A DNA stretch of 64,000 nucleotides, from the NCBI GenBank assembly GCA_020057115.1, contig JAGVGJ010000039.1:52806-116805 (forward strand), written 5' to 3'. Each line of letters starts with the position of its first letter. The stretch's first letter is position 1. Shown here piece after piece: positions 453 through 61,091 of the stretch. Made by a program: the position numbers and the translations under genes. The notes under the pieces are model-generated. The model was given only the letters and a program-made list of their open reading frames with translations. It was not told the origin of the DNA and did no database searches. The DNA comes from Candidatus Omnitrophota bacterium. GTDB taxonomy: Bacteria > Omnitrophota > Gorgyraeia > 2-01-FULL-45-10.

Positions 453-1547
453 ATGAAGATGGTTATTTTGCCCTTTAATGTTAAGGTGCCGGTGCTTGCT
501 TGCGGGGCGGATCTGAAGGGGGCTTTTGCGCTTGCCAAGGGCAATAATGCTTATTTGGTCGATGGTTTCGGCGATCTAAGTGACCCAGACAACCTGGAGA
601 AGTATGAGAAGGCAGTAAAGCTCACCTGCCGGAAGCTAAAGATAATACCGAAGACGATCGTTTGTGATATGCATCCCGGTTATTTCTCAACTCGTTTTGC
701 CGAAAACTGGACCCTGGCCCCTGGCCCCTGGACCCTTAGCAAGGTCCAACACCATCACGCCCACGTGGCCGCCGCTATCATCGACAATTCAATAAAAGGC
801 GACGTGATAGGGGTTGCGTTCGATGGCACTGGCTATGGCCTTGACGGAAATATCTGGGGTGGGGAGTTCTTCATCGGGAGCCTGAAAGGCTTTAAGCGAG
901 CCGGGCATCTGGAATATGTCGCAATGCCGGGAGGGGAAGCAGCGATAAGAGAGCCATGGCGCATGGCGGCGAGTTTTTTACATTCCGCCGGAGTCGATGA
1001 CATCGCAAGATCGTTATACGGTAATAAGACGAAACCCATAAAACTATTGATAGACAAGGCCTTCAATTCACCTCTCACATCGAGCGCCGGAAGATTGTTC
1101 GACGCTGCGGCGAGCATCATCCTTAGAAAAGAGAAGGCGATATTCGAGGCTGAACTTCCGATAGCCATCGAAAAGATAGCCGAAGAGTCATGTGGTGATC
1201 ATTATAAGTGCGCTACTACACCTCAACTCGTGAGAGCTGTGGCGCGCGACTCATTAAAAGGCGTCGAGCGTTCTATAATATCGGCAAAATTCCATAATTC
1301 TGTCGCAAGGCTCATATTGAATACGGCGCGGAAGATAAGAAGAAGCACGAAGATAAAAAAAGTCATTCTCGCGGGTGGGGTATTCCAGAACAGATTTTTA
1401 ACAGAGCGCGCTACGGGGCTTTTAGAGAAAGCGGGCTTCGAGGTATTTATTCACACTGACATTTCAACCAATGATTCCGGCATCCCGATAGGGCAGATAG
1501 CGCTCTGCGGGACCCTGGACCCTGGATCCTGGCCCCTGCACGCATAG
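453..1547 (+). CDS. hypF: HypF-like carbamoyltransferase, Kae1/TsaD-like C-terminal domain only; acylphosphatase, Zn-finger and YrdC domains absent
   Basis: 364 aa with the HHHAHVAAA motif and FDGTGYGLDG, aligning only with the C-terminal half of canonical ~750-aa HypF. Sits in a hyp cluster with hypCDE. Confidence 0.75.
   Translation: MKMVILPFNVKVPVLACGADLKGAFALAKGNNAYLVDGFGDLSDPDNLEKYEKAVKLTCRKLKIIPKTIVCDMHPGYFSTRFAENWTLAPGPWTLSKVQHHHAHVAAAIIDNSIKGDVIGVAFDGTGYGLDGNIWGGEFFIGSLKGFKRAGHLEYVAMPGGEAAIREPWRMAASFLHSAGVDDIARSLYGNKTKPIKLLIDKAFNSPLTSSAGRLFDAAASIILRKEKAIFEAELPIAIEKIAEESCGDHYKCATTPQLVRAVARDSLKGVERSIISAKFHNSVARLILNTARKIRRSTKIKKVILAGGVFQNRFLTERATGLLEKAGFEVFIHTDISTNDSGIPIGQIALCGTLDPGSWPLHA
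712..735 (+). repeat. C-rich orientation copy of the (GGGNCCA)n tandem repeat, in frame inside hypF (encodes WTLAPGPWTL)
   Basis: Sequence ccctggcccctggcccctggaccc. Confidence 0.6.
1509..1538 (+). repeat. C-rich orientation (CCCTGGN)n repeat at the hypF 3' end, just upstream of hypC
   Basis: Sequence ggaccctggaccctggatcctggcccctg, encoding the hypF tail ...DPGSWPLHA. Confidence 0.6.
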
Positions 1548-1563: not shown

Positions 1564-1776
1564 ATGTGTTTAGCGATACCAATGAAGATAATCAAGATCG
1601 ACGGCGATACGGCAACAGTAAAGGCTGGCGGCTTGGAACGTAAGGCTAATATAGCACTACTTAAGAATGTCAGGTTGGGTGAGTACATCCTTGTGCATGC
1701 GGGCTTTGCCATAGAGAGGGTCAAGGAGTCCGAAGCGAAGAAGACATTGAAAATAATGCATGAGCTTGAGATGTGA
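1564..1776 (+). CDS. hypC: Hydrogenase maturation factor HypC
   Basis: Starts at the MCLAIP motif (the N-terminal Cys is essential). About 70 aa, HupF/HypC family. The listed ORF starts 5 codons earlier, but MCLAIP is the canonical N-terminus. Confidence 0.85.
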   Translation: MCLAIPMKIIKIDGDTATVKAGGLERKANIALLKNVRLGEYILVHAGFAIERVKESEAKKTLKIMHELEM

Positions 1777-2236
1777 GTTTCACGCGATGCTCGGGCGAAC
1801 CCAGCGGTTCGCCCAACGAGTAAGCCGACATCTCCATGCGGCTCGCTTATGGGTAAGGCTGGATTGGATCACGCTCTATATGGGAAACTGGTGGGTGATC
1901 CAATAAAGTATTAAGGTGTCGCTTCGCGACCTAGATAGGGAAGAAACAAGAACAAACCCTGAGCCCAATTTAGCACATTGAAAATGTTAGGCCTTTTAGA
2001 AGTAGAAAAATGGTTATATATAACAATTTTTTGATATTAAAAGGACCGAGGATGTTTGAGGCCTCCTCCGGAGGCCGAGTTCCGCAAGCCGCTGCTGTAT
2101 TCACCAGGCGGCAGCCCCCGAAGGGGGCTGGTCCCCATTTTTCTACTGAACAAAAGGCCGGCCCTTTAGTTTAACTAGAGGGGCAACATTTTCAGTGATA
2201 AATTGGGTTCAGGGTTTGGAAGCTACATGAGAGAGA
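1777..2236 (+). other. Highly structured 460-nt non-coding spacer inside the hyp operon, a candidate ncRNA or MITE-like insertion
   Basis: No ORF. Many GC-rich hairpins (gggcgaacc/ggttcgccc; attggatcac/gtgatccaat; ggcctcc/ggaggcc; gccccc/gggggc; ggccggcc). An 18-bp inverted repeat with one mismatch, aaccctgagcccaattta (1955-1972) and taaattgggttcagggtt (2199-2216), encloses 226 bp. Confidence 0.3.
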
Positions 2237-3355
2237 ATGATGAAGTATATCGATGAGTTCAGGGACAAGCATCTGATCGTGAAGATCGCTAAGCGCATAC
2301 GCGAAGCGGTCGATCCGAGCCGCACTTATAATTTCATGGAAGTATGCGGCACGCACACTATGAGCATATTCCGCTTCGGCCTGCGGGACCTGTTGCTTAA
2401 GAATATAAGGCTTATTTCAGGCCCGGGATGCCCGGTCTGCGTCACGCCGAACGAATATATCGATAAAGCGATCGCAGCCGCAGAGCTTCCAAATGTCATC
2501 ATAGCCACATTCGGGGATCTCTTCAGGGTCCCGGGATCATATTCAAGTCTTGAAAAAGAAAAAGCCGCAGGCAGAGACATCAGGATGGTCTATTCAAGCA
2601 CCGATGCGATCGAACTCGCCAAGAAGCATCCCGATAAGGAGGTTGTTTTCCTGGGCATAGGGTTCGAGACCACGATACCTACGGTAGCCATGTCGATATT
2701 GATGGCGAAGAAGGAGAAGTTGAATAACTACTCGGTCCTCTCCGGCCATAAGACGATGCCGGAAGTATTAAGAGCGCTCGTCACAGACAGGTCCGTAAAG
2801 GTGGATGGTTTTATCCTTCCGGGGCATGTGAGCGCTATAATAGGCGTAAAGCCTTATCAGTTCCTGGCCAAGACCTACAAAAAGAGGTGCGTCATAACCG
2901 GTTTTGAACCGCTGGATATCTTGCAGGGGATATTGATGCTCGTTTCGCAGAAGAAGCCTAAGGTGGATGTTCAATATACGAGGATAATAGAGGCTTCCGG
3001 CAACAGGCGCGCCGAAGCGAGTATTGAGAAGGTCTTCCAGAAGACGATATCTAATTGGCGCGGGATCGGAGAAGTAAGAAATAGCGGTCTAAAGATACGG
3101 AAAGCTTTTTCCGCCTTCGATGCGGAAGATAAATTCAACATAAGGCCAAGGCCTTCAAGAGAACATGCCGGATGTGTATGTGGGGAAGTGCTTAAGGGCG
3201 TAAAAACGCCGCTTGAGTGCAGATTATTCTCCAAGGTCTGCAACCCTGAGCATCCTGTCGGTGCATGTATGGTAGCTACCGAAGGGACGTGCGCGGCATA
3301 TTATAAATACAGGGGCCAGGGGCCAGGGGCCAGGGGCCAGGAAAAAACATGGTGA
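2237..3355 (+). CDS. hypD: Hydrogenase maturation factor HypD
   Basis: 372 aa with the conserved CGTH, GPGCPVC and CAAYY motifs. The C-terminal ~14 aa (RGQGPGARGQEKTW) are encoded by the G-repeat. Confidence 0.9.
   Translation: MMKYIDEFRDKHLIVKIAKRIREAVDPSRTYNFMEVCGTHTMSIFRFGLRDLLLKNIRLISGPGCPVCVTPNEYIDKAIAAAELPNVIIATFGDLFRVPGSYSSLEKEKAAGRDIRMVYSSTDAIELAKKHPDKEVVFLGIGFETTIPTVAMSILMAKKEKLNNYSVLSGHKTMPEVLRALVTDRSVKVDGFILPGHVSAIIGVKPYQFLAKTYKKRCVITGFEPLDILQGILMLVSQKKPKVDVQYTRIIEASGNRRAEASIEKVFQKTISNWRGIGEVRNSGLKIRKAFSAFDAEDKFNIRPRPSREHAGCVCGEVLKGVKTPLECRLFSKVCNPEHPVGACMVATEGTCAAYYKYRGQGPGARGQEKTW
3312..3341 (+). repeat. Perfect G-quadruplex motif (GGGGCCA)x4 overlapping the hypD 3' end and the hypE Shine-Dalgarno
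   Basis: Sequence ggggccaggggccaggggccaggggccagg, with AGGA at 3339-3342 and 6 nt to the hypE ATG at 3349. Confidence 0.75.
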
Positions 3356-7427: not shown

Positions 7428-7458
7428 GGGACAAGGGGCCAGGGTCAAGGGTCCCAGG
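7428..7458 (+). repeat. G-tract repeat (4 G3-4 tracts) filling the asrB-like / hycB-like intergenic spacer and carrying the SD AGGTGA
   Basis: Sequence gggacaaggggccagggtcaagggtcccaggtg. Confidence 0.7.
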
Positions 7459-24486: not shown

Positions 24487-24900
24487 TGGTGGAGGTGGGG
24501 GGAATCGAACCCCCGTCCCCGGGTATCAGAATAAAGGTCTCTACATGTTTATCCTAATCTTTGATTTCCCTCCCGCGGGCTTCAATAGGAGGAATCCCGC
24601 AGGAAGTATCCTTTATAGATTTCATCCCGCCGGCAAAAGGCTATGTCGCCGGGACTATCCCGCTAGTGTCGTCTTACCCGTTCCCGCAGGCTGGAACAGA
24701 AGACGGGTTAGCTTATAAAGCTAACGCTGCCGGAAGAACCGGTCCCGGCACTACTTGCATAGTGCGTAGGAGCTGGTCTACCGTTGCTGGAACCTTTAGG
24801 TTTTCAGCATTTGATTTGTGCCAGGTTTTTTAAGAGGCCTCCTAGCAACCTCTACATGCCGCCCTTACCTTGCTTACCTGGGTCGAATCCAGTCACCCCC
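24487..24900 (-). ncRNA. ssrA: tmRNA (SsrA)
   Basis: The minus strand ends ...GGGGGTTCGATTCCCCCCACCTCCACCA (T-arm plus CCA). The 5' end GGGGGTGACTGGATTCGACCCAGG pairs with the 3' end to form a 7-bp acceptor stem with the G3:U70 alanine identity pair. An internal tag-like frame ends ...PAALAL followed by UAA within a hairpin. smpB lies immediately upstream on the same strand. Confidence 0.85.
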
Positions 24901-25589: not shown

Positions 25590-25717
25590 ATTTCAACAAT
25601 TTGTGCGGACGTGGCGGAACTGGCATACGCGTACGGCTCAGAACCGTATGGGGCAACCCTTAAGAGTTCAACTCTCTTCGTCCGCACCACTATCTTTACT
25701 CTTCTGACAAAGGAAAA

Positions 25718-32705: not shown

Positions 32706-32732
32706 AGGGGCAAGGGTCCTGGGCCCAGGGTC
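32706..32732 (+). repeat. G-tract repeat in the queE-queF spacer
   Basis: Sequence ggggcaagggtcctgggcccagggtcc. Confidence 0.7.
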
Positions 32733-32751: not shown

Positions 32752-33204
32752 ATGAAGAGTCCGACATACGAAGGGTTGCAGTGCAAAATAAAGAAGTTAA
32801 ACACGCCGGAGATAGAGGTCTGGGAAAATAATTATCCGGAGCGGGATTATGTGATAGAGATAGATATCCCGGAATTTACCTGCATATGCCCCAAGACGGG
32901 ATTGCCGGATTTCGCGGATATAAAAATAAGATATATAGCCGATAAGCAGTGTATCGAGCTAAAGTCGCTCAAATACTACACTCTGTTTTACAGGGATGTG
33001 GGGATATTCAATGAAAACGTCGTAAATAAGTTCATGGATGACTTTGTGAAGGCTGTGAAGCCGCGCTGGGCCCAGATAACGGGCGTGTTCAACGCAAGAG
33101 GCGGGATAAAGACGACGGTTGTGGCTGAATATAAAAGGGGCAAGGGGCCAGGGTCTCCCGCCCATATGGTATCGAGGGGCGGGACAGGCGGGGTCCAGAG
33201 ATAA
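32752..33204 (+). CDS. queF: NADPH-dependent 7-cyano-7-deazaguanine reductase with an unusual Gly/Pro-rich C-terminal tail
   Basis: FTCICPKTGLPDFA and E.KSLKYY motifs. The last ~25 aa (GKGPGSPAHMVSRGGTGGVQR) are encoded by the G-repeat at 33137-33198. Confidence 0.85.
   Translation: MKSPTYEGLQCKIKKLNTPEIEVWENNYPERDYVIEIDIPEFTCICPKTGLPDFADIKIRYIADKQCIELKSLKYYTLFYRDVGIFNENVVNKFMDDFVKAVKPRWAQITGVFNARGGIKTTVVAEYKRGKGPGSPAHMVSRGGTGGVQR
33137..33198 (+). repeat. Extended G-tract repeat at the queF 3' end, just upstream of the fumarase alpha start
   Basis: Sequence ggggcaaggggccagggtctcccgcccatatggtatcgaggggcgggacaggcggggtcc, with six or more G3-4 tracts. Confidence 0.7.
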
Positions 33205-35918: not shown

Positions 35919-35995
<77 letters not shown>

Positions 35996-36000
35996 TTTTC

Positions 36001-36077
36001 GTCCCTGTAGCTCAGTTGGATAGAGCATCTGCCTTCTAAGCAGGTGGCCGCCTGTTCGAATCAGGCCAGGGACGCCA
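36001..36077 (+). tRNA. tRNA-Arg (anticodon UCU)
   Basis: Acceptor GTCCCTG/CAGGGAC, anticodon loop cTTCTAa, T-arm GCCTGTTCGAATCAGGC, and encoded CCA. Confidence 0.9.
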
Positions 36078-56758: not shown

Positions 56759-57232
56759 ATGGGCCTGGTTCGAAAGATAGTGACATGGGCAAGGATAAAG
56801 TCGCCGTGGATCATCCACTTTAATACAGGCGCGTGCAATGCCTGCGACATAGAGATAGTTGCCGCGCTTACTCCGCGTTATGATCTGGAGAGGTTCGGCA
56901 TCCAGCTTAAAGGCACGCCACGCCACGCAGATGTGCTCGTATGCTCCGGCCCTGTCACGAAGCAGATCACGCCCAGGTTGAAACGCATATATGAGCAGAT
57001 GCCCGAGCCGAAGTTCGTAGTGGCGGTAGGCACCTGCTCCTGCTCAGGCGGAGTATTCCAGGGATGTTATAATGTCGAGTCTGGGATCGACGAGGTCCTT
57101 CCGGTATCAGCCTATATACCCGGATGCCCTGCGAGCCCGAAGGCGATAATAGACGGCGTGACGAAACTTTTAATGAGTCTCGAGGATAAAGAAGGGTCCA
57201 GGATCCAGGGTCCAGGGTCCGGAAAAAAATAG
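56759..57232 (+). CDS. Group-4 [NiFe]-hydrogenase small subunit (NuoB/MbhJ-like, complex 2)
   Basis: CNACDIE, GTPRHADV, GTCSCSGG and GCPASP motifs. The C-terminal tail KEGSRIQGPGSGKK is encoded by the G-repeat. Confidence 0.9.
   Translation: MGLVRKIVTWARIKSPWIIHFNTGACNACDIEIVAALTPRYDLERFGIQLKGTPRHADVLVCSGPVTKQITPRLKRIYEQMPEPKFVVAVGTCSCSGGVFQGCYNVESGIDEVLPVSAYIPGCPASPKAIIDGVTKLLMSLEDKEGSRIQGPGSGKK
57194..57222 (+). repeat. G-tract repeat at the small-subunit / NuoC-like junction
   Basis: Sequence gggtccaggatccagggtccagggtccgg. Confidence 0.7.
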
Positions 57233-61014: not shown

Positions 61015-61091
61015 GTGGGCGTAGTTCAGCCTGGCAGAACACTTGACTGTGGCTCAAGACGTCGCGGGTTCAAATCCCGTCGCCCACCCCA
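61015..61091 (+). tRNA. tRNA-His (anticodon GUG) with G-1
   Basis: Acceptor GTGGGCG/CGCCCAC, G at -1 opposite C73, anticodon loop cTGTGGc, T-arm GCGGGTTCAAATCCCGT, and encoded CCA. A ttgata-17-taaaat promoter lies ~20 nt upstream. Confidence 0.9.

Follow-up and report, generated by a model that had tools for sequence, protein, structure and literature searches.

Among the described repeats of bacterial genomes, the ERIC (IRU) elements and the Correia (NEMIS) elements of Neisseria are imperfect palindromes without open reading frames (ORFs), roughly 100-300 bp in length and predicted to form long hairpins in mRNA; within operons they occupy transcribed intergenic stretches, facing either way, and they vary in presence between close relatives. 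The element that we describe here, which sits between hypC and hypD in a 64-kb stretch of a Candidatus Omnitrophota genome (contig JAGVGJ010000039.1; the whole stretch of 64,000 nucleotides is called the window below), answers to the same description. It has no sequence similarity to those families, however, and it is longer and branched, with an asymmetric core that is kept beyond one genus or phylum and covaries, and with a strand-specific enrichment in G·U pairs; the TA duplication and the IHF site of Correia elements are not seen in it.

Classical miniature inverted-repeat transposable elements (MITEs), which derive from insertion sequences (ISs), are likewise small, noncoding, dispersed and nonautonomous, with inverted termini, and our element (266 nt, without coding capacity, with terminal inverted repeats) resembles them in these respects. 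Among the 120 loci listed by the search described below, however, we found no parent IS, that is, no cognate autonomous element with the same termini, and no consistent target-site duplication was found; moreover, the conserved part is here the interior, whereas in classical MITEs it is the ends. The REP/BIME repeats (RAYT, Y1 HUH) and the PATEs of IS200/IS605 are likewise strand-specific hairpins without target-site duplications, often in inverted pairs, and are thought to act as single-stranded DNA, as this element may. Yet REPs are 20-40 nt long and have a GTAG motif, against 230-340 nt and no GTAG-type head in our family, whose copies within one region lie on both strands with no replication-strand bias, and the surroundings of the 120 listed loci yielded no RAYT, TnpA or TnpB gene. 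Finally, raiA, HEARO and the Rfam "motif" noncoding RNAs (ncRNAs) also combine a conserved core, covarying helices and variable peripheral hairpins and also occur metagenome-wide; unlike them, this element has no match in Rfam 15, and it is multicopy and presence-polymorphic in the manner of a mobile repeat.

What, then, is such a hairpin doing between two genes that in the closest relative overlap? We lean, with moderate confidence, to the view that it is a nonautonomous, ORF-less foldback repeat of the MITE/ERIC/Correia kind, from an uncatalogued family: a selfish element that acts as a single strand and whose core is recognised by a factor encoded elsewhere. The parts of the window copy are the following.

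1953-2218 (+): foldback repeat element of family (a), 266 nt; sense strand co-oriented with hypCDE
1953-1976 (+): 5' arm of the outer stem, pairing with 2195-2218; 24 nt, 92% complementary, one G·U pair on the + strand
2043-2047 (+): 5' strand of P1, GGACC, pairing with 2130-2134 (GGUCC)
2048-2060 (+): core 5' block GAGGAUGUUUGAG, conserved; in the R1 covariance model
2061-2076 (+): P2 hairpin of the core, variable in sequence, covarying
2077-2086 (+): core 3' block GAGUUCCGCA, conserved
2087-2129 (+): two extra hairpins between the core and P1', seen among the listed loci only in the window, L072 and L082
2123-2146 (+, hyp-sense): terminator-like G+C hairpin followed by AUUUUUCUAC, from a consensus scan only
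2160-2184 (+): P3 side hairpin at a three-way junction; sequence and length vary within family (a)
2195-2218 (+): 3' arm of the outer stem, pairing with 1953-1976

A preliminary description of this DNA had noticed an 18-bp inverted repeat (1955-1972/2199-2216) and had taken the whole 460-nt spacer to be bounded by it. The repeat is real, but it is longer (1953-1976/2195-2218, with 218 nt between the arms), and it bounds only the 266-nt element, about 180 nt of the insert (1771-1952) lying outside. Nested long-range stems run through its interior (1976-88/2185-97, 1990-97/2152-59 and 2001-13/2135-47), and 1953-2218 is therefore one branched hairpin. That the region is strongly structured, as had been said, is borne out: on the + strand, the minimum free energy is -205 kcal/mol for the spacer 1777-2236 (z = -11.9) and -135 kcal/mol for the hairpin (z = -12.1), against -124 kcal/mol for the hairpin on the - strand (z = -11.0), so that the + strand is better by 11 kcal/mol. 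The U-run of the terminator-like hairpin at 2123-2146 doubles as the 3' strand of stem 2001-13/2135-47. The R1 covariance model of the core scores the window copy at 59 bits (E = 6e-20).

How did the hairpin come to lie there? A search with HypD, which places the window in Candidatus Omnitrophota, gives as the best reference the hypC-hypD junction of the closest relative found (L014/L015, P0002; HypD 82% identical), which we used as the empty site, and against which the window's locus reads as follows.

453-1547: hypF-like gene (ORF call)
1564-1776 (+): hypC; ORF opens MCLAIPM, and its last codons and stop TGA (1774-1776) come from the start of the insert
1771-2242 (+): whole insertion against the L014/L015 empty site, about 472 bp; boundary ambiguous by 3-4 nt
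1777-1952 (+): left part of the insert, moderately structured, unique, outside the repeat family
2237/2240-3355 (+): hypD; start kept directly 3' of the insert, with MKYIDEFRD aligning with MKYVDEFRD of L014
3349-4353 (+): hypE (ORF call)

In L014/L015, hypC overlaps hypD by 17 nt and there is no spacer. In the window, the additional 472 bp or so sits after ...GAGATG, with GATG/ATG at both junctions; hypC is now terminated by a TGA that the insert supplies, and hypD retains its own ATG. Because the closest relative has the two genes overlapping, the 460-nt gap is a lineage-specific insertion absent from that relative. Its flanks carry a 3-nt GAA around the hairpin and GATG around the 472-bp insert, matches of 3-4 bp that could be chance. 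The layout that the preliminary description had reported, 460 nt between hypC and hypD without a conserved ORF, is confirmed: the spacer holds only short ORFs (54 aa at most), and these are not conserved, because the indels among homologous copies are not multiples of 3 and break the frames, the 3' block lying in different frames.

The same description had held that hypC and hypD are normally adjacent, which is right for L004 (overlap), L002 (8 nt), L014/L015 and L007/L008/L013 (about 20 nt) but not for all Omnitrophota, the spacer being 461 nt in L001, 372 nt in L006 and 247 nt in a P0003 contig. The L001 (L001:3540-4000) and L006 (L006:3629-4000) spacers share homology (79% over 91 nt) and abound in AAAATTTT words; they have no relation to the window insert, fold more modestly (z = -3.2) and gave no core with the R1 covariance model. 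The hypC-hypD junction looks like a hotspot for different insertions, to judge from these spacers. As for the left part of our own insert, the 182 nt of 1771-1952 fold at -67.6 kcal/mol (z = -3.5), and 1777-1952 (176 nt) has no Rfam match and no BLAST match in the 135 fetched loci against which the similarity of the window's elements was judged. The frame after the hypC TGA stays open for 46 more codons, to a TAA at about 1912 (1774-1914; chance about 0.1); a SECIS-type readthrough would be one conceivable reading.

The element is not confined to this locus. The hypC-hypD spacer of L005 (a metagenome-assembled genome labelled Planctomycetia, its HypD 61% identical to the window's) matches the window hairpin at 79-80%, in the opposite orientation, and L005 has three copies in all, which are spread over both strands of a 6.3-kb stretch and are 86-96% alike. 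The three copies first compared share GAGGATGTTYGAG, a hairpin and GAGTTCCGC, with a stem closing the whole. When metagenome contigs were scanned with a pattern of this core (about 21.5 specified bases, for which we estimated that a few matches would arise by chance), it was found in at least 120 of them, from sediments, groundwater, microbial mats and the human gut, and our counts of distribution, strand and context rest on these. The matches split into subfamilies whose outer sequences are unrelated. About 20 of the listed matches belong to the window's subfamily, (a), the closest relatives among them being L082 (77% over 243 nt, the two extra hairpins included), L043, L021 and L044. Family (a) copies have unrelated flanks and come from more than 15 metagenome contigs, L054 carrying two; the unit is 230-340 nt long, and most copies end in ACCTAAG…CTTAGGT inverted termini, whereas the window copy has the same interior and different termini. 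A search for further copies of the termini had been proposed earlier; within the 64-kb window, the outer arm has a single location (0 of 100 shuffles reach two matches).

Where else might the family have been seen before? Rfam 15 was searched, both at gathering thresholds and at E ≤ 10, with the hairpin by itself, the spacer, the whole window and 29 related loci, and returned nothing in the spacer, the hairpin or the motif of the 29 loci; the HEARO and IS605-orfB models gave no match, nor did 6S, SRP, RNase P, tmRNA or the self-cleaving ribozymes, in agreement with the earlier remark that the boxes of the first four are lacking. Viral contigs gave no match to the two DNA patterns, and BLAST of the window and gut elements against plasmids and phages gave none either. 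Full-text searches of the literature with the core, spelled as DNA and as RNA, brought up nothing but unrelated primers and microRNAs, and concept searches returned no description.

Some of the other subfamilies have habits of their own. Family (c), from mat metagenomes (Ga03162xx; L030, L060, L062, L064, L055, L093 and others), has many copies, often as divergent pairs in which a minus-strand copy is followed, about 200 nt on, by a plus-strand copy of a different subtype; its unit is flanked by CUUUUGAY words and continues on its 3' side with YUUUUGG and then a conserved hairpin GGUUACUUUUCUG…CAGAAAAGUAACC. A similar hairpin, ACUUUUUG/CAAAAAGU, follows the gut, L099, L125, L040 and L105 elements, and the human-gut subfamily is marked by "GGCACUUGCAGC…".

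The core common to all copies can be written P1 – GAGGAUGUYYGAG – P2 hairpin – GAGUUCCRCA – P1'. In the matches of the pattern scan, the 5' block is invariant by design of the exact pattern, and its natural variation is seen in second copies found by the covariance model, which read GAGGA-UGU(U/C)(U/C)GAG … GAGUUCC(G/A)C. The helices around these blocks change sequence and keep their pairing. In alignment A3, of 79 sequences, P1 covaries (GGACC/GGUCC, CUGC/GCAG, CGGC/GCCG, GUAUC/GAUAC), and 84.9% of P1/P2 cells are paired, against 54% in 500 shuffles and 30-47% in slid registers. Cells changed on both sides number 296, against 107 in the shuffles, none of which reaches 296, and such double changes occur in 6 of the 7 P2 pairs; the closing pair of P2 is G:C in 62 sequences and G:U in 17. 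Within family (a), a consensus fold (RNAalifold, 14 full-length members) has six helices, 15 pairs of which are kept through changes on both sides, so that the covariation check suggested for homologous loci came out positive both here and in P1/P2. Between the window and L005 alone, compensatory changes replace GAAAAAUGG/CCAUUUUUC by GAAAAACGG/CCGUUUUUC, and whole hairpins are gained or lost.

Nor are the two strands equivalent. The strand with GAGGAUGUU, which we call sense, is the more stable in 89 of 96 listed loci, by a mean of 14 kcal/mol, and outside the core it has 785 G·U pairs against 496 on the antisense, with 70 loci favouring the sense strand and 15 the antisense (p = 2e-8, with kinship among sequences and base composition uncontrolled, as they also are in the covariation statistics). 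Because the sense strand is both more stable and richer in G·U pairs, the data point to selection on a single strand, be it RNA or single-stranded DNA.

We asked whether the core resembles anything familiar, or encodes something. A small-protein reading of GAGG-AUG-UUY-GAG is out: P2 is 12-24 nt long, not in steps of three, and the frames of the 3' block differ. The K-turn, the T-loop (UUYGA) and 5S loop E, the 16S "GAGAUGUUGGGUUAAGUCCCGCAA" and the 23S GTPase-centre "AGGAUGUU", and among DNA sites dif/Xer and the MOB_P nic site "YATCCTG", all as we take them to be, bear some resemblance to it, but none fits well enough for a claim; what we take to be the pC194/phiX nick site, "CTTGATA", is no good fit either and is not conserved in the family.

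The mechanism that we infer is as follows. The element would spread, or would once have spread, through a single-stranded intermediate of its sense strand, RNA or single-stranded DNA; the core would be the site recognised by a trans-acting factor encoded elsewhere; and the long outer stems would serve mainly to present the core and to make the insertion tolerable. In the window, the insertion destroyed the hypC/hypD overlap, and with the sense strand co-oriented with hypCDE, the folded element should be part of the hyp transcript. If hyp expression is affected at all (by attenuation at the hairpin and U-run of 2123-2146, by processing or by stabilisation of the mRNA), this would be a side effect and not the reason for the element. 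Of the guesses made in the preliminary description, a small MITE insertion comes closest, given that the insertion is absent from the nearest relative and belongs to a dispersed, ORF-less family with inverted termini, but it leaves the G·U asymmetry and the covariation unexplained. A structured ncRNA was partly right, with compensatory changes in six helices and in P1/P2 and with the strand asymmetry of G·U pairs.

Why should one care about a single odd gap? For the locus itself, an anomalous 460-nt interval in a normally overlapping gene pair is explained as an insertion, and one is cautioned against annotating it as regulating hyp. Beyond the locus, following up the element brought to light a short and strongly conserved motif that covaries, is abundant in metagenomes and is absent from Rfam 15. 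Should this motif act as RNA, it would be a candidate for a new class of structured RNA, for which an alignment and a covariance model already exist; should it act as single-stranded DNA, long hairpin repeats would seem to be mobilised by a system so far unrecognised. In both cases, the motif makes it possible to test how intergenic palindromes spread and how operons tolerate them.

Several observations weigh against the selfish foldback repeat that we prefer. The 64-kb window holds only one copy (covariance model, filters off), so that mobility in this genome is a presumption. Around about 12 other copies of family (a), there is no shared target-site duplication. A core of about 35 nt kept across phyla while the termini vary reverses the pattern of a classical MITE, and the G·U asymmetry could in part be a skew in base composition, the sequences being phylogenetically nonindependent. 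Three independent genomes with a copy next to hypC are more than random dispersal would give, which leaves some room for a link to hyp. And in the 120 listed loci, there is no autonomous partner or mobilising enzyme: clustering of ORFs within 3.5 kb and across whole loci recovers only orthologous neighbours and generic large families, and the 743 ORFs of at least 150 aa include no recurrent tnpA, tnpB, iscB, transposase, reverse transcriptase or recombinase. A link to a RAYT/Y1 transposase was tried and is out, tblastn with two Y1_Tnp proteins giving no match in the motif loci; so is a link to a neighbouring Der GTPase, the gene in L072 being hflX and that in L099 lying 3 kb away.

Could the core itself be the thing, and the hairpins only its vehicles? 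It is possible, and we hold it tentatively, as a reading with less than an even chance, that the core is an undescribed and widespread structured RNA module that has been spread by different selfish hairpins and that might be bound by a universal cellular factor or might act as a small catalytic or ligand-binding fold. If that were true, its carriers would span bacteria of the PVC group, the human gut, and mats or sediments, and the window copy would be one instance of a new RNA class.

The main rival, which we think rather doubtful, is that the family consists of free-standing genes for structured ncRNAs, each copy with its own promoter and acting as RNA, with dispersal by duplication or horizontal transfer a secondary matter and with the core again a universal-factor binding site or a catalytic or ligand-binding module. 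The covariation in P1, P2 and the stems of family (a) is what such genes would show, as is the strand asymmetry of G·U pairs; hairpins are gained and lost as modules at fixed positions, as in real RNAs; and in the gut subfamily, the positions are syntenic and conserved, and the orientation is the same throughout. Copies are intergenic at 113 of 124 sites among the listed matches, and their orientation is random with respect to flanking genes (classes of 20, 16, 14 and 13), an independence from neighbours that is also expected of independent genes. What such genes would not lead one to expect is the near-identical trio of L005 within 6 kb or the divergent pairs of family (c), both of which look like proliferation, or the difference in presence between close relatives, or the unrelated outer sequences of the subfamilies. 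Neither the window copy nor the DNA ahead of it has a predicted sigma-70-like promoter, a point that is weak because the promoters of Omnitrophota may differ.

It is unlikely, in our judgment, that the element is an ordinary double-stranded DNA MITE, with a transposase elsewhere binding the ACCTAAG…CTTAGGT termini and with the fold and the apparent covariation following from the matching of the arms. Family (a) does have conserved inverted termini and is small, ORF-less and dispersed, and in L054, two inverted partial copies flank the gene for an IS4-family transposase (DUF4372 + DDE_Tnp_1). That gene, however, belongs to an IS of 1.3 kb (L054:1-1524; L136-L145) with ends CACTNGTGTCCAAATTA / TAATTNGGACAGCNNTG and short terminal inverted repeats of its own that are unrelated to the element, and ten other copies of the IS have no core alongside; a MITE derived from this IS was accordingly rejected. 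In L054, two divergent family (a) halves form a perfect palindrome, and the IS has gone precisely into its ATAT centre; the palindrome itself has the look of an inverted duplication about the small AT-rich hairpin of the element. (The 1.3-kb IS4-family element is abundant in Omnitrophota.) Beyond L054, the changed termini of the window copy around an unchanged interior, the retention across subfamilies of an asymmetric core near the tip instead of the ends, and the inconsistency of any duplication at the target all sit badly with a transposase that reads the ends, and a double-stranded site does not predict a strand asymmetry of G·U pairs.

Very improbable, we believe, is a regulatory RNA or DNA site tied to the hyp genes, which would set the expression of hypD and hypE or the stoichiometry of hypC and hypD; the cis-regulatory RNA for the hyp operon that was suggested at the outset is unsupported. 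The element does adjoin hypC in three genomes (the window, L005 and L082, the last coming from the unbiased motif scan, with hypF'–hypC and then a family (a) element), two further copies in L005 flank hyp genes, and a terminator-like hairpin with its U-run lies on the hyp-sense strand. But the orientations disagree: the window element ends 21 nt before hypD and is sense to hyp, whereas those of L005 and L082 begin 17 nt and 15 nt after the hypC stop and are antisense. The hypC-hypD junctions of L002, L004 and L014/L015, which include the closest relative, have no element; most copies of family (a) lie in unrelated contexts (between miaA and hflX in L072, and beside histidine kinase and HD-GYP genes elsewhere); and the unrelated inserts of L001 and L006 at the same junction suggest a permissive or hot site, not a function. 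Because the closest relatives do without the element and most copies are elsewhere, we read the place next to hypC as a permissive or preferred site of insertion rather than as a sign of hyp function.

An inverton, that is, a phase-variable segment that a site-specific recombinase would invert between the two 24-bp repeats so as to turn a promoter towards or away from hypD, is the most improbable of these readings, since, although the segment of about 220 bp is typical in size, lies in opposite orientations at the hypC junctions of different genomes and in L082 has a XerC/D-like tyrosine recombinase gene 290 nt away, orthologous sets of loci (the gut subfamily, L044/L108/L110 and L017/L127) show one orientation against their flanks, no promoter-like site lies inside, no recombinase recurs near copies in the listed loci, and the nested complementarity along its whole length, with compensatory changes, is something that invertons do not need.

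A few minor observations concern the hyp loci and the rest of the window. The recombinase gene of L082 occupies L082:978-1766 (-), past the element that adjoins hypC, and hypD is not where it would usually be, which suggests that the hyp locus there is rearranged or island-borne. An exact look-up of the window's HypC and HypD sequences gave no record. The hypF-like ORF of the window encodes 364 aa, presumably about the C-terminal half of a full-length HypF in size, and is preceded by noncoding repeat DNA and not by an N-terminal half; L005 has a 386-aa ORF directly upstream of hypC (L005:2097-3257).

Upstream of this short hypF lies a second, unrelated foldback element (110-400, fold z = -8.5), with nested inverted repeats at 144-173/353-382 (30 nt, 97%) and 184-206/319-341 (23 nt, 100%) and a direct repeat AATTAAGGGACGTTTCTA at 110-127 and 144-161; it has no homologue in the fetched loci and no R1 core. 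The only Rfam matches in the window are a tmRNA (24487-24900 (-), 172 bits) and four tRNA genes (25605-25686, 35919-36074 and 61015-61088).

Tandem arrays of the heptamer GGGGCCA, of 2-4 units, are scattered through the window, at 705-735(-), 1513-1536(-), 3312-3342(+), 7428-7451(+), 32707-32730(+), 33137-33153(+) and 57194-57217(+); GGGGCCAGGGGCCAGGG has 15 matches at 3 or fewer mismatches in the window, against 0.25 expected. Several arrays lie inside genes or at their 3' ends, and one of them is the C-terminal "GQGPGARGQ" tail of HypD, which the 82%-identical homologue, with 359 aa against 372 aa, is not long enough to have. The arrays resemble the STRR heptamer repeats of cyanobacteria, and other heptamers form arrays in L005 (RTACGCN) and next to elements of family (c) (TTTTGAC).

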